Shown here piece by piece: positions 1-33,742 of a DNA stretch of 34,676 nucleotides. Made by a program: the position numbers and the translations under genes. The notes under the pieces are model-generated. The model had not been told where the DNA came from, searched no databases, and was given only the letters and a program-made list of their open reading frames with translations. The stretch is from a virus. Lineage: Duplodnaviria; Heunggongvirae; Uroviricota; Caudoviricetes. Location: the IMG/VR virus record IMGVR_UViG_2537561603_000002; one strand, written 5' to 3'. The stretch's first letter is position 1. Each line of letters starts with the position of its first letter.

Positions 1-1038
1 TTACGGGGTAATGCCAACCGCTGCCGCCACTTTGTCGCCACTTGGCAGCGTTGCCAGAGGATTGAAACGGAGCGCCGTTTCCAGATGTGCGTAACGCATA
101 GTCATTTTTATATCGTGGTGTCCGAGAATTTTTTGTAAGGCCAGAATGTTTCCACCCGACATCATGAAGTGCGCCGCAAACGTATGGCGCAGAACGTGTG
201 TGAGTTGACCGCGAGGGAGCACGATAGACGTTTTTTCCATCACGGATAAAAATTGAAAATAGCAGTCTGTGAAGAAATTGAACCCATCAAGCGCCATGAT
301 CTCTTCGTAAAGCTCTTTACTGATAGGGATGCTTCTGTTTTTCTTCCCCTTCGTTCTTACAAAGGTAATTCGGTATTTGGTCACCTGTGAGCGGGTAAGA
401 TTTACGGCTTCACGCCAGCGTGCGCCTGTGCTTAAGCATATCTTAACTACCAGTGCCAGTATTGGGTCCTGACGTTTGCAATCAGCCAGCAATTCAACAA
501 TCTGCTCATGGGTAAGCCATGCCATCTCTTTTTCTGCGATGGTGAATTTTCGCATGTTCTCCAGTGGGTTCGGATACGACCATTCGCCCAGGCGGGATAG
601 TTCGCTAAAAACACTACTTAGATAGCTTTGCTCCAGGTTAACGGTGACCGGGCTTGCTCCTTTTTTCCATTTCTCGCTGAAGTAGATCTCACCTGTCAGG
701 CGTTTATCTCGATAGTGGGCAAACATTTTAGAGGTGAGATCGGTTGCAAGGGGATTGCCCAGAGCGTCAACCATCAGCAGTAATTTGTCATAGACATGCT
801 GCCCAGCAGTCAGAGATTTACCATGTAGTTTGAACCATAGTTCAACCAAGTCTTTCAGTGTTCGACGATCCACTGATTCACCCAGCCAGGGCTTTGCTTC
901 GGTTTCTTCCATCGTGTGACGCTCAAAAGCCAGAGCTTCGCCTTTGGTGGCGAATTGTTTACGCACACGACGCCCACTACGTCCGGCGGGGTAACATTCG
1001 CAAAGCCATTTTCCTGTGGTGAGTTTTCGTACTGCCAT
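1..1038 (-). CDS. int: Tyrosine integrase (P2/186-like); start taken at internal Met (MAVRKLTTGKW...), the ORF is open to 1194
   Basis: Translation has the P2-Int-like N-terminus (GRSGRRVRKQFATKGEALAFE) and C-terminal catalytic region (HVLRHTFAAHFMMSGGNILALQKILGHHDIKMTMRYAHL) with the R..HxxR..Y signature. Stop codon lies at 1-3, so the 3' end abuts the window edge. Confidence 0.85.
   Translation of the reverse strand: MAVRKLTTGKWLCECYPAGRSGRRVRKQFATKGEALAFERHTMEETEAKPWLGESVDRRTLKDLVELWFKLHGKSLTAGQHVYDKLLLMVDALGNPLATDLTSKMFAHYRDKRLTGEIYFSEKWKKGASPVTVNLEQSYLSSVFSELSRLGEWSYPNPLENMRKFTIAEKEMAWLTHEQIVELLADCKRQDPILALVVKICLSTGARWREAVNLTRSQVTKYRITFVRTKGKKNRSIPISKELYEEIMALDGFNFFTDCYFQFLSVMEKTSIVLPRGQLTHVLRHTFAAHFMMSGGNILALQKILGHHDIKMTMRYAHLETALRFNPLATLPSGDKVAAAVGITP
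19..40. repeat. Candidate attL core; 22-bp direct repeat with 31822-31843 (21/22 identical)
   Basis: cgctgccgccactttgtcgcca here versus cgctgccgccattttgtcgcca at 31822-31843. The two copies bracket the prophage, int-proximal and ogr-proximal. Confidence 0.55.
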
Positions 1039-1226: not shown

Positions 1227-1418
1227 TTATCGTGAGTTTTTAGTACAGATTTTTTTGGATTTACTAATAGTTCCATCATTGCAAACGAATTTGCCATCTG
1301 AGGTACAGTGAGAAACACCTCCCTTTTTCCCTGAGCAGGGATAATTTCTAGCATAGGTAGTTAGTGGGTTTAATAACAAAGAACATGACAAAACCACAAA
1401 AAATACCTTACCAAGCAT
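1227..1418 (-). CDS. Small secreted or lipoprotein-like Cys-rich hypothetical protein (63 aa), AT-rich cargo between int and repressor
   Basis: ORF with N-terminal hydrophobic signal-like segment ([23 protein letters not shown]) and 6 Cys in the mature part; local AT-richness differs from the phage backbone. Confidence 0.4.
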
Positions 1419-7684: not shown

Positions 7685-7873
7685 ATGCAGGACTATTTTT
7701 TGGAGTCTTTAAAGCTCCAGCGCATTGATTTTTTTCTTAAGCTTGTAGCGGCTAGTGAGTGTAGTGATGAAGAGAAGGGGCTGGCTTTGCAGTGGGTTTC
7801 TGAACTAACAGATGAACTCATGGCAAAAATCAGAACCCACGAATACAACCGCTCAATGGATGTCATCAGTTGA
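7685..7873 (+). CDS. Small protein in tum position (candidate SOS-induced antirepressor-like)
   Basis: ATG at 7685 with SD aggagg; lies directly downstream of the LexA box in the position of 186 tum. Functional call is positional inference. Confidence 0.4.
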   Translation: MQDYFLESLKLQRIDFFLKLVAASECSDEEKGLALQWVSELTDELMAKIRTHEYNRSMDVIS

Positions 7874-7883
7874 GGTGACTTTT

Positions 7884-8117
7884 ATGCGCATTGAAATAAT
7901 GATCGATAAAGAGCAGAAGATTAGCCAGTCTATCCTGGACGCCCTTGAATCCGAGCTTTACCGCAATCTGCGCCCCCTGTATCCAAAAACGGTAATTCGT
8001 ATCCGCAAAGGTAGCTCTAACGGTGTGGAACTGACCGGACTGCAACTGGACGAAGAAAGAAAACAAGTGATGAAAATTATGCAGAAGGTGTGGGAAGACG
8101 ACAGCTGGCTGCATTAG
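7884..8117 (+). CDS. DinI-family protein (77 aa)
   Basis: MRIEIMIDKEQKISQSILDALESELYRNLRPLYPKTVIRIRKGSSNGVELTGL...KIMQKVWEDDSWLH parallels DinI (MRIEV...; conserved C-terminal W-E-[SD]-x-D-x-W); own SD gaggtg. Confidence 0.7.
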   Translation: MRIEIMIDKEQKISQSILDALESELYRNLRPLYPKTVIRIRKGSSNGVELTGLQLDEERKQVMKIMQKVWEDDSWLH

Positions 8118-8245: not shown

Positions 8246-8986
8246 TCAGTTTTCTTTGAATTTTTCACTTAATCGTTTCGTCAATACTTCGACAGATTCT
8301 TTGCGACCGGAGAACAAGTCATTGACGACGTACTCCATAATCTCAAAAGCATCCTCAATGTCTTTGACTTTTACTTCATCGTAGGTATGGCTTCCGGCAT
8401 TTCCTAAAAATTTAATTGCCATAAGAGGTCTTGAAAACGATCCGTATAATTCAGGTAGCATCCCTAAACGGTGGTGTAGAGTTATGCGTTTGCCATTATC
8501 ATTACGTTCAGCTACATCCATAGCGGTTAGCATTCTTTCAACTGAAATTCGAATTAGGTTTGCTGCTGCGCCAGGCTGTATTAGGAAAATGGAAAATGAG
8601 GCTTCAAGCGGTTCGGTAATTTCTTCTGGGCATTTTTCAGGTATTTCGAAAGGATGCAGTGATGGGTAAAAGGTGAAAGGTCTGTGCCATTGATAGTACT
8701 CAATATCATTTCTTTCTTCATCCCAACCTTGTTCCCATCCACTCTTACCAGTACAGGCCACAACTTCACCACATTGCATTCTTGAACAGCGGGCCATGCA
8801 ACTGAAAATAGATGAATCCATTTCTAGTTCAAACCAATCTTCACTGCGGAATTTTCGGGTATCATGTGTGTCATACGAGACGAAACTTTCTTTAATGATC
8901 TGTAGGGTTTTCTGATTGCAGTTAGGGCAGGGCCACTCAACCTGCATATCGTGGAAAAACGCACCAGAGAGCTTGTGCACAGTCAT
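8246..8986 (-). CDS. Cargo hypothetical protein (246 aa): N-terminal Cys-rich (zinc-ribbon-like) region plus C-terminal alpha-helical domain; candidate defence protein
   Basis: Reverse-strand ORF with SD gagga upstream of ATG 8986; CPNC...CxxxCxxxxC...C cysteines; C-terminal region holds an R-x4-H motif (KRITLHH); lower GC than backbone; in the A-to-Q variable region. Confidence 0.55.
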   Translation of the reverse strand: MTVHKLSGAFFHDMQVEWPCPNCNQKTLQIIKESFVSYDTHDTRKFRSEDWFELEMDSSIFSCMARCSRMQCGEVVACTGKSGWEQGWDEERNDIEYYQWHRPFTFYPSLHPFEIPEKCPEEITEPLEASFSIFLIQPGAAANLIRISVERMLTAMDVAERNDNGKRITLHHRLGMLPELYGSFSRPLMAIKFLGNAGSHTYDEVKVKDIEDAFEIMEYVVNDLFSGRKESVEVLTKRLSEKFKEN

Positions 8987-9280: not shown

Positions 9281-9356
9281 GCAGAAGATTATTATTGGTA
9301 CACTGTCGGTGACTCTCTACGCAGATCTTACACATTAATTTCTAATGGGGCATGCT

Positions 9357-10157
9357 ATGATCTTTCTAAGTCATAATCACCGTGACAAAAGGTTTGTAAG
9401 TGTTATAGCGGAAAAACTAGCAGATGTTTATGGGCGTGATAACGTATTCTACGATTCTTGGTCTATCCAACCCGGAGAGGGTATTATTGACAAGATGAAT
9501 TTAGGAATGGAGAATGTATCGTTCTTTTTCTTTTTTGTCACAGAAAATAGCTTGGCAAGTAACATGGTAAAAATGGAATGGCAAAATGCTTTAATTAAGG
9601 CATCGTCCGGGAAGTGTAAATTTATACCAATACGTTGCCAGAATATATCCTTGCCTGCTCTGCTTACTCAAACGCTATATATTGATCTTTATTCGTATGG
9701 GATCGATGTGGCAATAAGACAAATTATAGATGTCATTAATCAACAAAATACGTATATTCCTAATCCTGAGAAGTATTCAAACCTCTCCTATGATATTAAG
9801 GATGATGATGGGGGTAAGATAGTGAAATTATCAGCAATGGATTTTTTAGAACCAATTGCTGATTTTATGATGATTATGGATAATACAATTAAGCATGATG
9901 ATGTTGTTGTTATGGTCAATGGAGAAAGCTCATTCACTCAGGGGTTTATTGAAAATGCATCTTTAGAAAATGGTATGAAAGTAAGTGGTGCCACTGTTGG
10001 CCTAAATCGGGGGTTAACACCAACGATGCCAATGTATGTTTCTCTTAGGTTAAAGGATGGTTCACCTTTGAATATATTTGCGGTGCTACATCGAGTAAGT
10101 ACCGAGCGTTATGCTCCTATACCACATAAAGCCGATGATGCCTTTAGAGTAAAATAA
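9357..10157 (+). CDS. TIR-domain protein (about 266 aa) with C-terminal domain of unknown function; candidate defence effector or sensor
   Basis: N-terminus MIFLSHNHRDKRFV...FYDSWSIQPGEGI...VTENSLASNMVKMEWQNAL follows the TIR pattern (FxSHxxxD, SW, conserved Glu in a W..E motif). AT-rich; alternative start at 9345; stem-loop terminator downstream. Confidence 0.6.
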   Translation: MIFLSHNHRDKRFVSVIAEKLADVYGRDNVFYDSWSIQPGEGIIDKMNLGMENVSFFFFFVTENSLASNMVKMEWQNALIKASSGKCKFIPIRCQNISLPALLTQTLYIDLYSYGIDVAIRQIIDVINQQNTYIPNPEKYSNLSYDIKDDDGGKIVKLSAMDFLEPIADFMMIMDNTIKHDDVVVMVNGESSFTQGFIENASLENGMKVSGATVGLNRGLTPTMPMYVSLRLKDGSPLNIFAVLHRVSTERYAPIPHKADDAFRVK

Positions 10158-18578: not shown

Positions 18579-19316
18579 TCATTCATTGTCAAATAATTTT
18601 TGCTCTTTCAATATTTGTGTCGAAAAATTATTGCTTATTAATTTTACAAGCTTGCCGCACAAATTAAATGAATATCTAAAATAATCTAAGTCAGGGATGA
18701 GGTATTCTTTTTCTTCAGAGGATATTCCTGCCTCTAATAATTTTTTTTCATATCTTTGGTCCTTCACCCAATTATTATGGACTCCTGTGTCTCGTCTTGC
18801 TTTAATTTCAATGTATTGTTTTAAGAGATGTTCTATTTTCTTTTTGTCTAAGCATAAGAGTTTGCATAATTTATTGATGTATTCTTTGGGTGATCCAAAT
18901 GTGAGACTCGCGACTCCTTCGTTGACTAGATAGTCAAAAAGTTCATCTTCAGATAATGACTTAAACACCCCATAATCACACTTAATTTTATTTAGTTTTT
19001 CTGGATTGATCCTGAAGGTCAACTTCATGATTTCAATAATGTAATCTTCAAATGCTGAAACAAGCGAACTAAAGCACAATGATGGCATATGTTTTGTTAT
19101 TAAATCATGCCGTATTCCTTTATCTGAGATTTCAGGTGAATGTTTTTCCAGAAAGCATTCAAGATTTGTATAAGCCTCATAAAGCTGAGGGTTAGTTTCC
19201 TCATTGGCGTGAGAGATGGCAATGTTTTGAAATATAATTGTTCTGAATAAAATATCAGCTTTAATAAAATATGATGATGTGATTTTATCCAGGAAGAGAT
19301 AATTATCGGAGTGCAT
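18579..19316 (-). CDS. Cargo hypothetical protein (245 aa), AT-rich, antisense to the late operon; candidate abortive-infection/defence protein
   Basis: ORF with SD gaggaa 5 nt before ATG 19316; markedly AT-rich and Lys/Asn/Ile-rich, unlike flanking GC-balanced tail genes; inserted where P2 has S and V adjacent. Contains an R-x4-H motif (RRDTGVHNN), weak evidence. Confidence 0.55.
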   Translation of the reverse strand: MHSDNYLFLDKITSSYFIKADILFRTIIFQNIAISHANEETNPQLYEAYTNLECFLEKHSPEISDKGIRHDLITKHMPSLCFSSLVSAFEDYIIEIMKLTFRINPEKLNKIKCDYGVFKSLSEDELFDYLVNEGVASLTFGSPKEYINKLCKLLCLDKKKIEHLLKQYIEIKARRDTGVHNNWVKDQRYEKKLLEAGISSEEKEYLIPDLDYFRYSFNLCGKLVKLISNNFSTQILKEQKLFDNE

Positions 19317-20344: not shown

Positions 20345-21239
20345 CCTTTCGCAGTTGCCTGCGCCGCAGATTGTGGATGTGCCGGACTTTGAGACGCTGC
20401 TTGCCGAACGCAAGGCCGAATTTGTTGCGCTTCATCCGAAAGATGAGCAGGAAGCAGTGATCCGCACGCTGGAGCTGGAATCTGAACCCGTCACTAAATT
20501 GTTGCAGGAGAACGCTTACCGTGAGTTGCTTCTGCGCCAGCGCATTAACGAAGCCGCGCAGGCGGTGATGGTGGCTTACGCGATGGGCGGCGATCTTGAC
20601 CAGCTCGCTGCCAACTACAACGTGAAACGCCTGACGGTGACGACTGCTGATAATGATGCTGTGCCGCCCGTTGCAGCTGTGATGGAAAGCGATGAAGCGT
20701 TACGCCTGCGTGTGCCTGCAGCCTTTGAAGGGCTTTCTGTTGCGGGGCCAACTGCAGCTTATGAATTTCATGCCCGAAGCGCCGACGGCCGGGTGGCGGA
20801 TGCCAGTGCAACCAGCCCGGCACCTGCAGAGGTGGTGCTGACTGTCCTTAGCCGCGAAGGCGATGGAACTGCAGAAAAAGACCTGCTGGACGTGGTGGAA
20901 AAAGCTCTGAACAGTGAGAACGTCCGCCCGGTGGCTGACCGTCTTACGGTTCGCAGCGCAGAAATCATCCCGTATCGCGTGGAAGCCACCATTTTTCTCT
21001 ATCCGGGACCGGAAGCAGAGCCGGTAATGGCAGCGGCAAAAGCCAGCCTGCAGAAGTACATTGCCAGCCAGACGAGGCTTGGTCGGGATATTCGCCGTAG
21101 CGCCATCTTTGCTGCTCTGCATGTTGAGGGTGTTCAACGTGTGGAACTGGCTTCTCCGCTGGCGGATGTGGTCCTGAACAAAATACAGGCGGCATCATGT
21201 ACGCAGTGGAGCGTAACCAACGGAGGAACGGATGAATAG
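20331..21239 (+). CDS. J: Baseplate protein J
   Basis: ATG 20331 with SD ggagcag; 302 aa equals P2 J length; canonical position. Confidence 0.8.
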   Translation: MAVIDLSQLPAPQIVDVPDFETLLAERKAEFVALHPKDEQEAVIRTLELESEPVTKLLQENAYRELLLRQRINEAAQAVMVAYAMGGDLDQLAANYNVKRLTVTTADNDAVPPVAAVMESDEALRLRVPAAFEGLSVAGPTAAYEFHARSADGRVADASATSPAPAEVVLTVLSREGDGTAEKDLLDVVEKALNSENVRPVADRLTVRSAEIIPYRVEATIFLYPGPEAEPVMAAAKASLQKYIASQTRLGRDIRRSAIFAALHVEGVQRVELASPLADVVLNKIQAASCTQWSVTNGGTDE

Positions 21240-24257: not shown

Positions 24258-24515
24258 ATGCAATATTTTTTTTATGTCATGGGTGCTCTGGCTGAAATGG
24301 AACGCGAACTGATAGTTGAACGCACCAGGGCAGGGCTGGCTGCAGCTCGTGCCAAAGGCAGAGTAGGTGGACGCCGTACTAAGTTGACCACCGAACAGTG
24401 GGCACAGATTGGACGTTTACTCGAGGCCGGAGAATCAAGACAACGTATTGCACTGATTTTTGATGTGGGCGTTTCTACCATTTATAGAAAATTTCCGGCG
24501 AATAAGAGCAATTAA
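24258..24515 (+). pseudogene. 5'-truncated Gin/Pin/Hin-family serine DNA invertase (C-terminal ~80 aa only)
   Basis: GALAEMERELIVERTRAGLAAARAKGRVGGRR...ALIFDVGVSTIYRKFPA matches the C-terminal HTH region of Gin/Pin/Hin invertases; the N-terminal catalytic domain (active-site Ser) is absent. Confidence 0.7.
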
Positions 24516-24571
24516 TCGCTCTGAATCAGCATTATTTTGATTATCCCTGCAAGTAGACAAATACCCTCATT

Positions 24572-24589
24572 TTGTATGAATAACTGTAC
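24572..24589. promoter_or_regulatory. Ogr-type late promoter element (TGT-N12-ACA) for the FI-FII-E-T-U-D operon
   Basis: tgtatgaataactgtaca, centred about 55 bp upstream of the expected transcript start near FI ATG 24667. Confidence 0.5.
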
Positions 24590-24666
24590 AACTACACTTA
24601 GCTGTTTGTCAGGCACAATCACTTCAACATAGGGCGAAGCCTAATCCAATCAGGAGGTTCGCCACT

Positions 24667-25839
24667 ATGGCTCAGGATTACCACCACGGGGTGCGCGTTG
24701 TTGAAGTCAACGAAGGCACCCGATCCATTACCACGGAGAGCACCGCCATCGTGGGCATGGTCTGCACGGGCGATGATGCCGATGCAAAAATGTTTCCTCT
24801 TAATAAACCCGTACTGATCACTGATGTGCTGACTGCCAGCGGTAAAGCGGGTGAGTCCGGCACGCTGGCCCGTTCGCTGGATGCCATCGCTGACCAGGCA
24901 AAACCAGTGACCGTTGTTGTGCGTGTGCCGCAGGGTGAAACGGAAGAAGAAACCACGACCAATATCATCGGCGCAGTGACTGCTGAAGGTAAAAAAACAG
25001 GCATGAAAGCCCTGTTATCTGCCCAGACACAGCTCGGCGTTAAACCGCGCATTCTCGGCGTGCCAGGTCACGATAACAAAGCCGTTGCTACTGAGTTGCT
25101 GAGCGTGGCGCAAAGCCTGCGTGGGTTTGCCTACCTGTCAGCGTATGGCTGCAAGACGGTACAGGAGGCGATCACTTACCGTGAAAACTTCAGCCAGCGC
25201 GAAGGAATGCTGATCTGGCCCGACTTTACTGGCTGGGACACGGTGCTGAATGCCGAAGCAACGGCATATGCCACCGCTCGTGCGCTTGGTCTGCGTGCCA
25301 AAATTGATGAGCAGACCGGGTGGCACAAAAGCCTGTCCAACGTGGGCGTGAACGGTGTCACCGGAATTTCTGCAGATGTGTTCTGGGATCTGCAGGACCC
25401 GGCAACCGATGCAGGTCTGCTTAACCAGAACGATATCACCACGCTTATCCGCAAAGACGGTTTCCGCTTCTGGGGTTCCCGCTGTCTGGGCGATGATCCG
25501 CTCTTTGCCTTCGAAAACTACACCCGCACGGCGCAGGTGCTGATGGACACGATGGCAGAAGCACACATGTGGGCGGTGGATAAACCGCTTAACCCGTCGC
25601 TGGCCCGCGACATTATTGAAGGTATCCGCGCCAAAATGCGCAGCCTGGTCAGTCAGGGCTATCTCATTGGTGGTGATTGCTGGCTGGATGAGTCGGTGAA
25701 CGACAAAGACACGCTGAAAGCCGGAAAACTCACCATCGACTATGACTACACGCCAGTGCCGCCACTTGAAAATCTGATGCTGCGCCAGCGCATCACCGAT
25801 CAGTACCTGGTGAATTTCGCCAGCCAGGTCAGCGCGTAA
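24667..25839 (+). CDS. FI: Contractile tail sheath protein FI
   Basis: 390 aa (P2 FI 396 aa); SD aggagg before ATG; canonical position. Confidence 0.85.
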
Positions 25840-30407: not shown

Positions 30408-31512
30408 ATTTCAGCTCTGAACTGCTTAACAAAGGCAACAAAACTCCGGCATTCAGCATCAGTGTTGAGGGCAGGGATATCACCACTGTGCTGGACAACC
30501 GCCTGATGGGGCTTACGCTGACGGATAACCGGGGCTTTGAAGCGGACCAGCTTGATCTGGAGCTGGACGACGCTGATGGAAAAATCGTGCTGCCGCGCCG
30601 TGGTGCGGTCATTACGCTGGCGCTGGGCTGGAAGGGACAGCCGCTTTTCCCGAAAGGGGCATTCACGGTGGACGAGATTGAACACACTGGCGCACCGGAC
30701 CGCCTGACCATCCGGGCGCGAAGTGCTGATTTTCGGGAAACGCTGAATACCCGCCGTGAAAAATCGTGGCACAAGACCACGGTCGGGGAAGTGGTGAAGG
30801 AAATAGCTGCGCGGCACAAACTGAAGATGGCACTGGGTAAAGACCTGTCGGATAAGCCCGTGGAACATATAGACCAGACCAATGAGAGTGACGGCAGTTT
30901 TCTGATGCGGCTGGCGCGCCAGTACGGTGCTATTGCGTCGGTGAAAAATGGCAATCTGTTATTCATCCGGCAGGGACAGGGCAAAAGCGCCAGCGGTAAA
31001 CCTCTGCCGGTGATCACTATCACACGCAAGGACGGCGACAGTCACCGCTTTACCCTGGCAGATCGCGGAGCCTATACGGGCGTAATTGCCAGTTGGTTGC
31101 ATACCCGCGAACCCGCGAACCCGCGAAGAAAGAAAGCACCACGGTGAAGCGTAAGCGCAGGACCGCAAAGCAGAAGAAAGAGCCGGAAGCGAAGCAGGGC
31201 GATTACCTGGTGGGTACGGATGAAAACGTGCTGGTACTTAATCGCACTTATGCCAACCGGAGCAACGCCGAACGGGCAGCGAAAATGCAGTGGGAACGCC
31301 TGCAACGCGGCGTTGCATCATTCTCGCTACAACCGGCGGAAGGGCGGGCAGATCTCTACACAGAAATGCCTGTGAAGGTCAGTGGCTTTAAACAGCCGAT
31401 AGATGATGCGGAATGGACCATTACGACTCTGACGCATACCGTCAGCCCGGATAACGGTTTTACGACCAGTCTGGAGCTTGAAGTGAGGATTGATGATTTC
31501 GAAATGGAATGA
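30404..31512 (+). pseudogene. D: Tail protein D (late control gene D) interrupted by a frameshift in an 8-bp tandem repeat (ACCCGCGA x3 at 31103-31126)
   Basis: Two ORFs (30404-31147 and 31093-31512, different frames) together cover a gpD-length protein; deleting one 8-bp unit gives one continuous ~366-aa ORF (…HTREPAKKESTTVKRKRR…). Confidence 0.65.
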
Positions 31513-31602
31513 TTCTTCGCAATGGAGAACTTTTAAGTTTGCAAAATGGAATGATGCGGTATCATTATTGTGAATTTAGCAAAAATGGGGAGAACTCGAA
31601 AA

Positions 31603-31821
31603 ATGATGATTTGCCCACTGTGCGGAAGTGCCGCCCATACTCGCAGCAGTTTTCAGGTATCTTCATTGACCAAAGAGCGTTACAACCAGTGCCAGAACAT
31701 TAACTGCAGCCATACTTTTGTTACCCATGAAACTTTTGTTCGTTCGATTGCAACGCCAAAAGAGTCAAATCCGGTTCAGCCGCATCCAATGAAATCAGGA
31801 CAGGTGGCGCTCTCTCTTTGA
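31603..31821 (+). CDS. ogr: Late gene transcription activator Ogr (zinc finger, 72 aa)
   Basis: MMICPLCGSAAHTRSSFQVSSLTKERYNQCQNINCSHTFVTHE parallels P2 Ogr (CPLC...QCQNVNCS...); last phage gene before the att repeat. Confidence 0.8.
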   Translation: MMICPLCGSAAHTRSSFQVSSLTKERYNQCQNINCSHTFVTHETFVRSIATPKESNPVQPHPMKSGQVALSL

Positions 31822-31843
31822 CGCTGCCGCCATTTTGTCGCCA
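31822..31843. repeat. Candidate attR core (direct repeat of 19-40); right prophage boundary
   Basis: cgctgccgccattttgtcgcca, 21/22 identical to 19-40; begins 1 bp after the ogr stop. Confidence 0.55.
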
Positions 31844-31900
31844 TCGTTAAAAAACAGTGCTTCTAACGTCATGATTTTAAACGGCATAAATTTCAGGCAA

Positions 31901-31945
31901 CAAAAAACCCATCAACCTTGAACCGAAATGGCGGGGTTGATGGGC
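31901..31945 (-). terminator. Rho-independent terminator of ybjL (minus strand)
   Basis: Stem cccatcaac (31908-31916) / gttgatggg (31936-31944); on the minus strand it is followed by a T-rich run (complement of aaaaaa at 31902-31907). Confidence 0.6.
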
Positions 31946-32056
31946 TCCACAAAATGGGGACATCAAAGAAAAGCAGTGGCACTAATTAAGACTGATGCCC
32001 TGCGGAAAAGTTCTGCGGTTGTGCAAAAAAATTTCATTTTCAGGGCAACTTCAGTT

Positions 32057-33742
32057 TTATCCTAATCCTGGCCATACCATGACGATGATTGTCCCTGCCA
32101 GCGTCAGCAGGACGTTGGCGATTGCATAGGTGCCCGCATAGCCCAGCGCCGGGATGTTACTGCGAGCTGTATCACTGATGATCTCCATTGCCGGCGCGCA
32201 GGTGCGTGCGCCCATCATTGCGCCGAACAACAGTGCGCGGTTCATTCGCAATACATAAGCACCGAACAAGAAACAGATAACCACTGGCACAAGACTGACA
32301 ATTAATCCGGCAATCAACATCTGACCGCCAATCGTGCCCAGGCCGTTATTAATACCGCTACCGGCGCTCAGACCAACGCCTGCCATAAACACCATTAAGC
32401 CGAACTCTTTCACCATGCTTAATGCACCCTGCGGAATGTAACCGAAGGTCGGGTGGTTAGCGCGCATAAATCCCAGCATAATTCCGGCGAATAACAACCC
32501 GGCAGCGTTCCCCATGCCGAAACTGAATGTGCTGAACTGGAAGGTGATCATCCCGATCATCAGCCCAATAACAAAGAAGGCGCAGAATGCCAGCAAGTCA
32601 GTGACCTGGCTATGAATCGAGATAAAGCCGATGCGATCGGCGATGGTTTTTACGCGACGGGCATCGCCGCTGACTTGTAAAACGTCACCTTTGTTAAGCA
32701 CGACGTTGTCATCTATCGGCATCTCAATCTGGCTACGAATGACGCGGTTAAGGAAGCAACCGTGATCGGTCAACTTCAGTTGTGCGAGACGTTTGCCAAC
32801 GGCGTTATGGTTTTTAACGACCACTTCTTCAGTGACGATACGCATGTCGAGAAGGTCACGATCGAAAACTTCTTTGCCGTTACGGAAGCTGGGATCGAGT
32901 CGGGCGTGGGCGTCGGGATAGCCTACCAACGCTATTTCATCGCCCATTTGTAGCACAGCATCACCGTCTGGATTCGCCAGAATCCCGTTACGTCGAATAC
33001 GTTCAATGTAGCAGCCAGTTTGTCGATAAATACCCAGTTCACGCAGATTTTTGCCGTCGGTCCAGGCCACCAGCTCCGGGCCGACGCGGTAGGCGCGGAT
33101 CACCGGTAAATAAACCTTACGGTTGGCATCAGTGTCCAGGCCACGTTCGCGGGCGATTTGCTGGGCGCTGGTCTGTAAGTCCTGATGCTGCAATTTCGGC
33201 AAGTAACGCGCACCAACAATCAAACTCACCAGACCGATTAAATAGGTTAAGGCATACCCGAGGCTCAGATTATCCAGTGCCAGTGAGAGCTGCCTGCTTT
33301 CCATGCCGGAATGACGCAGTGTATCGCCAGCACCGACCAGAACCGGTGTTGACGTCATAGAGCCAGCTAACATACCGGCCGTCAGGCCAATATCCCAGCC
33401 AAACAGCTTACCTAACCCTAAGGCGATCACCAGCGCACTGCCAACCATCACCAGTGCTAACATTAGGTAATTTTTCCCATCGCGAAAAAAAATGGAAAAA
33501 AAGTTCGGTCCGGCTTCGACCCCGACGCAGAAAATAAACAGCATAAAGCCAAGATTAAGCGCGTCGGTGTTAATGCTGAAATGTTGTTGGCCTAATAACA
33601 GCGATACGACTAAAACGCCAATGGAATTACCCAGTTGGATCGAACCAAGTCGTAATTTCCCGAGACATAGCCCAAGCGCGAGGACCACAAATAATAACAG
33701 AATGTAATTCCCATTTAACAATTCGGCGACGTTTATATTCAC
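32057..33742 (-). CDS. ybjL: Putative transport protein YbjL (YidE/YbjL family)
   Basis: 561-aa polytopic membrane protein with hydrophobic N- and C-terminal halves and a soluble central region; recognised as E. coli YbjL by sequence recall and by adjacency to ybjM and grxA. Confidence 0.7.

Follow-up and report, generated by a model that had tools for sequence, protein, structure and literature searches.

The near-terminal 22-bp repeat of a P2/186-like prophage at the rcdA-ybjL site: putative arm-type integrase sites beside a distinct 27-bp attachment core

Where does a prophage begin and end, and what is the meaning of a conspicuous direct repeat that lies close to both of its ends? These questions are raised by the locus analysed here, a stretch of 34,676 nucleotides from a Caudoviricetes record of IMG/VR (IMGVR_UViG_2537561603_000002), which is called the window in the following. 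Its left end is formed by the int gene (1-1038, minus strand), which encodes a tyrosine integrase of 345 aa belonging to the 186 type (Pfam Int_N and Phage_integrase) and is annotated as the same CDS in the RefSeq entry of E. coli Rb-23. The last prophage gene is ogr (31603-31821, plus strand), coding for a zinc finger late-gene activator (Pfam Ogr_Delta, with an equivalent in RefSeq), and the right host flank carries ybjL (32057-33742, minus strand), a host gene of the aspartate:alanine antiporter family (Pfam Asp-Al_Ex and TrkA_C; RefSeq). The gene order, with int followed by the block from cI to D and by ogr, all situated between rcdA and ybjL, is that of a P2-like (Peduoviridae) prophage, as judged from the annotations of Rb-23, HS and BL21-type lysogens. 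The initial annotation, which had described a P2-like prophage with int at its left and ogr at its right end, was right in this respect.

The repeat CGCTGCCGCCAYTTTGTCGCCA comprises 22 bp in direct orientation, and its two copies, which are identical at 21 of 22 positions, were borne out by direct reading and by a mismatch search. The left copy (19-40) reads CGCTGCCGCCACTTTGTCGCCA and lies inside the final codons of int, where it is translated as ...SGDKVAAA..., and the right copy (31822-31843) reads CGCTGCCGCCATTTTGTCGCCA and follows the ogr stop codon TGA (31819-31821) without a gap. At up to three mismatches, these are the only copies in the window, compared to 0.00 expected from 100 dinucleotide-preserving shuffles. 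Extension of the repeat, with mismatches allowed, was checked on both sides and revealed no similarity beyond 22 bp. The initial annotation regarded the 22-mer as the att common core, which would overlap the 3' end of int and define the boundaries of the prophage.

The uninterrupted host locus points to another sequence. In E. coli ECO21, whose empty rcdA-ybjL locus (L002) was used for comparison, the rcdA stop codon TAG is followed by a single copy of the 27-mer ATAAATTTCAGGCAACAAAAAACCCAT, which starts four bases past the stop codon and runs directly into the ybjL terminator. The left host flank is situated outside the window, as had been noted before, and is supplied by Rb-23 (L001), which is 100% identical to the window over positions 1-1,300. 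Here, the order is rcdA stop codon TAG, three bases, ATAAATTTCAGGCAACAAAAAAACCAT (L001 3900-3926), 74 bp of non-host sequence and the int stop. The latter corresponds to base 1 of the window, thus attL is located 74-100 bp to the left of it, and 92 bp of phage DNA separate its core from the left 22-mer. Altogether, the 27-mer, ATAAATTTCAGGCAACAAAAAAMCCAT, is found in attL (L001 3900-3926), in attR (window 31886-31912, plus strand) and once in attB (L002 3001-3027), the attL and attR copies being identical at 26 of 27 positions. In attR it reads ATAAATTTCAGGCAACAAAAAACCCAT and marks the true right boundary of the prophage, 64 bp to the right of the one proposed initially; consistently, in prophage-free genomes the similarity to the right flank begins no earlier than window position 31886 (query position 327). 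The 27-mer is hence present in one copy each in attB and in the attP of Klebsiella phage KP12 (L004; 26/27) and in a copy at both junctions. In the 6.4 kb of the empty ECO21 locus that were searched for the 22-mer, the best match showed seven mismatches. Since the 22-mer is absent from attB and it is the 27-mer that is duplicated at the junctions, the att core is a sequence other than the 22-mer. Both checks that the initial annotation itself had suggested, the comparison with a prophage-free locus and the extension to the left, hence came out against its core claim: the empty site stays at least seven mismatches away from the 22-mer, and the left flank duplicates a different sequence, which sits outside int, 74 bp beyond its stop codon.

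Other parts of the initial description of the insertion site could be confirmed. Insertion is intergenic, beside ybjL, and the empty site is formed by the rcdA-ybjL spacer of 174 bp. A tRNA or tmRNA gene as integration target was also considered and was rejected, because ARAGORN found neither in the window and the empty site is this spacer. The intrinsic terminator of ybjL folds into a hairpin at 31906-31946 (minus strand; RNA fold MFE -24.1 kcal/mol, z-score -2.46), approximately 62 bp to the right of the right 22-mer, and its U-tract and the beginning of the 3' stem arm are part of the att core. A simple terminator scan of the region 31500-32100 found nothing, because the loop of this hairpin is long and interrupted, and it was the explicit RNA fold that made it visible.

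The rcdA-ybjL site corresponds to the "PhiECO1" site, which was described in 2011. Table 1 of that publication gives PhiECO1 of E. coli HS at 916812-948276 and lists PhiECO1, PhiECO2, PhiECO3 and PhiSEN1 with the same integration site (PMC3448106). In HS, the stop codon of rcdA is found at 916795, i.e. the start of PhiECO1 directly follows rcdA, and its end precedes ybjL. The same source states that 186-type integrases tend toward tRNA genes as targets (PMC3448106), and the rcdA-ybjL site is a documented exception to this tendency. Among 5,426 complete E. coli genomes, the uninterrupted site of 241 bp was detected in 4,227, and it is interrupted in approximately 22%; about 1,110 of those genomes, including BL21, have this int and the ogr-ybjL junction. 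Few insertion points of P2-like prophages in E. coli are used as often as rcdA-ybjL.

Two natural lysogens permit to narrow down the position of strand exchange inside the core. In HS, the attL and attR cores differ at positions 1, 9, 12 and 13, and in Rb-23 position 23 is A in attL and C in attB and attR. Assuming that no mutation occurred after integration, we infer from these differences that strand exchange would take place between core positions 14 and 22 (AACAAAAAA).

If the 22-mers are not the core, what are they? An answer is provided by the arrangement of the uninterrupted attP. In the record of KP12, the int gene of which is approximately 96% identical at the DNA level, ogr and int are contiguous, and the interval contains, in this order, the ogr stop, a 22-mer, 42 bp, the core ATAAATTTCAGACAACAAAAAACCCAT, 74 bp, the int stop, 18 bp and a second 22-mer. 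The two 22-mers are approximately 183 bp apart (start to start) and surround the single 27-bp core. With one copy to the left and one to the right of the only core, both 22-mers are phage arm DNA. An attP that was rebuilt from the right arm in the window and the left arm in Rb-23 aligns to the ogr-int interval of KP12 without gaps, with 281 of 287 positions being identical; the anatomy given here is based on this one phage record and on the reconstruction.

The internal structure of the repeat fits to such a position in the arms. Each 22-mer holds two tandem units of 11 bp, the second of which extends 3 bp beyond the 22-mer. The P' arm pair of putative Int sites (19-43, plus strand) is made up of unit 1 TGCCGCCACTT (22-32) and unit 2 TGTCGCCACTT (33-43) and is situated 92 bp to the right of the core, and the P arm pair (31822-31846, plus strand), likewise putative Int sites, comprises unit 1 TGCCGCCATTT (31825-31835) and unit 2 TGTCGCCATCG (31836-31846) and has its start 64 bp left of the core. 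The units are spaced by one helical turn and point in the same direction in both arms. TGYCGCCAYTT is matched by three of them, and the P-arm unit 2 departs from it at the last two bases. The tandem arrangement CGCCA-N6-CGCCA occurs inside the prophage in the two arms only, and one further match is found in host DNA, where 0.12 are expected by chance.

Two types of arm sites, the P2 type (tgTGGaCa) and the 186 type (tgccGCCActt), have been distinguished, and three residues in the N-terminus of Int were proposed as those that tell the two kinds of arm recognition apart (Nilsson et al., 2011; PMC3448106). The P' unit 1 matches the 186-type consensus exactly, and the integrase encoded here has W11/E14/Y16 at its N-terminus, which are the same residues as in 186, whereas P2 has Y/D/R. 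Furthermore, this Int is 56% identical to that of 186 and 35% identical to that of P2. Lambda-type integrases are heterobivalent, i.e. arm sites, which flank the core and are absent from attB, are read by a separate N-terminal domain (PMC3448106). The same distribution is found for the units described here, which lie on both sides of the core in attP, are missing in attB and form two direct repeats per arm that match tgccGCCActt as well as YAYCGCCAYTY. Taken together, the 22-mers are very probably the P-arm and P'-arm binding sites of a heterobivalent tyrosine integrase, the binding of Int being deduced from sequence.

The comparison with well-studied relatives is consistent with this assignment. 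For phage 186 (NC_001317, feature 20889-21147), "predicted" Int arm-type sequences with the consensus YAYCGCCAYTY are annotated on both sides of attP, and our scan found tandem CGCCA units in direct orientation, 11 bp apart, in both of its arms, as in the phage studied here. Both phages also resemble each other in the early region, which codes here for 186-like CI, CII and Fil. However, 3 + 2 sites are annotated in 186 compared to 2 + 2 evident here; orf69 is inserted between the P' sites and int, so that the 186 sites are outside of int; and the distances between arms and core are unlike those in the present phage, the core of which is a 27-bp intergenic/terminator sequence. With regard to the geometry, P2 (NC_001895) offers a parallel. 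Its record shows the Int P arm (24293-24320), IHF, the core (24356-24383), Cox and the Int P' arm (24470-24496), the last being inside the int CDS (24462-25475) just as in the phage analysed here, and the overall order of ogr, P arm pair, IHF, core, RDF region and P' arm pair in the final int codons is shared. The distance from the start of the P-arm pair to the start of the core is 63 bp in P2 and 64 bp here, and from the end of the core to the start of the P' pair it is 87 bp in P2 and 92 bp here. Each P2 arm harbours two TGTGGACA-like units 11 bp apart, while the unit here is TGYCGCCA, and its core and host sites are unlike those of our phage. In both cases the arm repeats also code for the C-terminal tail of Int; in the window, the last 13 codons of int run through the P' arm sites. 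As the P' arm site of P2 is also found in the final int codons, such a placement is standard for P2 and gives no indication that the core overlaps int. In lambda, number, sequence and orientation of the arm sites differ from those of this phage, and the arm sites are not located inside int.

Candidate sites for accessory proteins can be proposed as well. A consensus scan yielded an IHF-like site, AATCATGACGTTA (31864-31876, minus strand), which matches WATCAANNNNTTR at 12 of 13 positions and is located between the P arm sites and the core, hence its position parallels the IHF site annotated in the attP of P2 and it may represent an IHF site of this phage. The P' spacer, which is outside the window, contains two IHF-like ACAATAAGTT repeats at a distance of 19 bp (L001 3949-3958 and 3968-3977; consensus match only) and two repeats GTGGTGGT as further candidate elements. 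In 186 and P2, annotated IHF and Apl/Cox regions occupy positions that are parallel to those of the candidate IHF-like site and the spacer repeats found here. When the P' spacer was compared to the cI-apl switch region for shared sequences that could be Apl/Cox operators, only scattered 7-mers were detected. The similarity of the ACAATAAGTT repeats to IHF sites is no weaker than that to Apl/Cox operators.

Related prophages show which parts of this region are conserved. The prophage found at this site in strain 2c3 is another P2-like element, in which an additional ORF follows ogr. Its P-arm 22-mer is identical and has kept the distance to the core, although the preceding sequence and the following spacer are replaced. 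PhiECO1 of HS shares the core site, the P-arm 22-mer and the P' block with the prophage analysed here and belongs to the same group with 186-type CI and Int, whereas its core differs at positions 1, 9, 12 and 13. The P' block of 43 bp, TTACGGGGTAATGCCAACCGCTGCCGCCACTTTGTCGCCACTT, is maintained in HS as non-coding sequence, since a separate ORF of 270 bp is situated between the block and int, and the C-terminal tail of Int ends there with ...PLATLPTSIASF instead of ...PLATLPSGDKVAAAVGITP. Because the block is kept where it is non-coding, coding constraint does not explain its conservation. The homology between related prophages breaks exactly at the edges of the 22-mers, as observed in HS and 2c3.

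The distribution of the motif extends far beyond this integration site. At least 120 loci of IMG/VR contain the 18-mer GCCGCCAYTTTGTCGCCA, and among the matches listed, 73 of 124 copies are at most 200 nt away from the catalytic tail of an integrase on the opposite strand, in 42 distinct contexts. Its presence beside int in so many contexts suggests that phages with other core specificities possess it as well. One of the IMG/VR copies is located approximately 60 bp from what we take, by eye, to be the 3' end of a tRNA or tmRNA-like gene. The same units are found in 186, which integrates at tRNA-Ile, hence the motif is common to phages of differing core and host-site specificity. This is as predicted for arm-type sites and the opposite of what is predicted for an att core. 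A second uninterrupted attP was sought in approximately 120 of the IMG/VR loci with the 18-mer, and a stretch of 450 bp containing both pairs was found in none of them; most of these contigs are predicted prophages that end at the int stop, as does the window.

Which other explanations could account for two such repeats? It appears quite unlikely, but it is the best of the alternatives, that the 22-mers are recognized by a regulator other than Int, such as distal CI operators comparable to FL/FR of 186, sites of an Apl/Cox excisionase or sites of Ogr. Such an assumption could be based on 186, where CI and Apl sites are present near attP and int, and on the fact that one copy abuts ogr. However, the sequence matches the Int arm consensus and not the annotated CI/Apl regions of 186, the geometry mirrors that of the Int arm sites in P2, and across many contexts it is the 3' end of int that the motif accompanies. 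Furthermore, KP12 and 813R9, in which int has an ATPase gene instead of cI as its neighbour, retain the 22-mer, and in 2c3 it keeps its distance to the core and not its adjacency to ogr. Even less probable is a repeat without function, which would be either a coding coincidence or a scar of recombination among mosaic phages. The exact position of the homology breakpoints at the 22-mer edges would be consistent with a scar, but zero copies are expected by chance, the 22-mer is perfectly kept in 2c3 where the adjoining DNA is replaced, its conservation extends to coding and non-coding contexts alike, and it shows an internal periodicity of 11 bp and a match to a published consensus. Finally, strand exchange within the 22-mer as common core, with a prophage extending from 19-40 to 31822-31843, can be practically dismissed: as a nearly perfect direct repeat that lies towards either end of the phage genes, the 22-mer is indeed highly non-random, but it is missing from the uninterrupted rcdA-ybjL site, host similarity begins at 31886 and neither at 31822 nor at 31844, the 74 bp left of the int stop are phage DNA that is also present in KP12, the uninterrupted attP contains two 22-mers where one would be expected, and the same 18-mer is found beside integrases in many sequence contexts.

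The assignment of the 22-mers to the Int arms can be integrated into a model of recombination at this site. In the circular phage DNA, the order is ogr stop, P pair, IHF-like site, 27-bp core, 74-bp spacer with its repeats, int stop, 18 bp and P' pair. According to the paradigm established for lambda, P2 and 186, the small N-terminal domain of Int would bind the arm units, its core-binding and catalytic domains would bind the core, and DNA-bending proteins would fold back the arms, thereby building the intasome. Strand exchange would take place solely within the 27-bp core ATAAATTTCAGGCAACAAAAAACCCAT, which is common to the phage and the host rcdA-ybjL region. Integration leaves one arm pair just inside each end of the prophage, hence the two pairs look like a terminal direct repeat. 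The ybjL terminator is intact at attR, because the duplicated core overlaps with it.

The arm consensus, the P2-like architecture of attP and the rcdA-ybjL site were already known from earlier work, and our general understanding of site-specific recombination is unchanged by the present result. Two further readings are conceivable, but rather improbable: occupancy of the 3' end of its own gene by Int, or the lineage-specific tail, may tune int expression or the directionality of recombination, or the perfectly conserved arm pairs may serve as preferred breakpoints for module swaps among P2/186-like phages. The main value of the finding is a correct annotation. If the 22-mer is taken as boundary, the ends of the prophage are misplaced by 64 bp on the right and by approximately 100 bp on the left, and the most conspicuous near-terminal direct repeat in P2/186-like prophages should, very probably, be annotated as the arm sites of Int.

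One comparison concerned the borders of the 22-mer arm pairs, the predicted arm-type sites of the integrase. We compared the related prophages of E. coli HS (L008, 1601-1974) and strain 2c3 (L003, 2990-3065) with window positions 1-60 and 31822-31885, and the edges of the arm pairs turned out to be the exact homology breakpoints between these prophages. In E. coli HS, an additional ORF is inserted directly after ...GTCGCCACTT and the tail of Int differs from that of the window Int; in strain 2c3, the P pair is flanked on both sides by replaced DNA. Judged from these alignments, the arm pairs act like fixed islands within mosaic DNA.

Differences are also found next to the integrase gene in the Klebsiella phage KP12 and in phage vB_EcoM-813R9, in which int and both arm pairs are approximately 96% identical to those of the window. 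Here, the gene adjoining int is annotated as a chromosome segregation ATPase (L004, 2337-3516 in KP12; L005, 2336-3515 in vB_EcoM-813R9), and since it stands where the window has a small ORF and the gene for the cI repressor (1227-2090), the int-proximal module has been swapped with retention of int and both arm pairs. The small ORF (1227-1418, minus strand, 63 aa) sits between int and cI in the window; its names in RefSeq vary between hypothetical and "YdcA family" protein, and neither Pfam nor PADLOC gave a match. Furthermore, a prophage remnant of approximately 7.9 kb (L029, 1-7950; IMGVR_UViG_638341082_000009) occupies the same rcdA-ybjL site as the window prophage. Head genes are missing from it, as are most of the tail genes; what remains comprises int, three minus-strand ORFs of 226, 342 and 292 aa, the distal tail genes (ORFs at the positions of a tail protein and late control D), ogr, the arm pair of the P side and attR. 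A comparable distance between the arm pairs, approximately 10 kb, was seen in at least three further IMG/VR contigs.

The P' arm spacer lies just left of the window and was read from the identical lysogen E. coli Rb-23 (L001, 3927-4000). It contains ACAATAAGTT twice, as direct repeats 19 bp apart that each fall inside a 13-mer resembling an IHF site (12/13 match); GTGGTGGT likewise occurs twice, immediately ahead of the int stop. Both repeat types are candidate binding sites for IHF or an excisionase; the cI-apl switch region showed no clear counterpart of them.

Two cargo genes occupy the interval from the DinI/Tum-like gene (7812-8117) to the portal gene, where P2 has a variable hotspot. The product of the first (8246-8986, minus strand) is a DUF4145 protein that PADLOC matches weakly to PD-T7-4 (E = 1.6e-5), and that of the second (9345-10157, plus strand) is a TIR-domain protein of 270 aa (Pfam TIR_2, 4e-23; matches to TIR-NLR and ThsB were weak). 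Together, the two proteins may form an anti-phage defence pair. Another accessory-gene position of P2-like genomes holds a 245-aa ORF (18579-19316, minus strand), which is antisense to the late genes around it and belongs to no family in Pfam or PADLOC.

PhiSEN1, a prophage of Salmonella Typhi, is listed under the PhiECO1 site identity (PMC3448106). Among the matches listed for P-type contexts (IMG/VR loci L010-L089), a few loci share an identical P arm and core with the window and differ in the flank to the right of the core (such as ...AAAAAACCCATTAACCTTGCTCCAGCC... or ...CCCATCTTTATTGTAAATTTCAGCC...). These loci suggest that an equivalent core is used in further hosts or at secondary locations.
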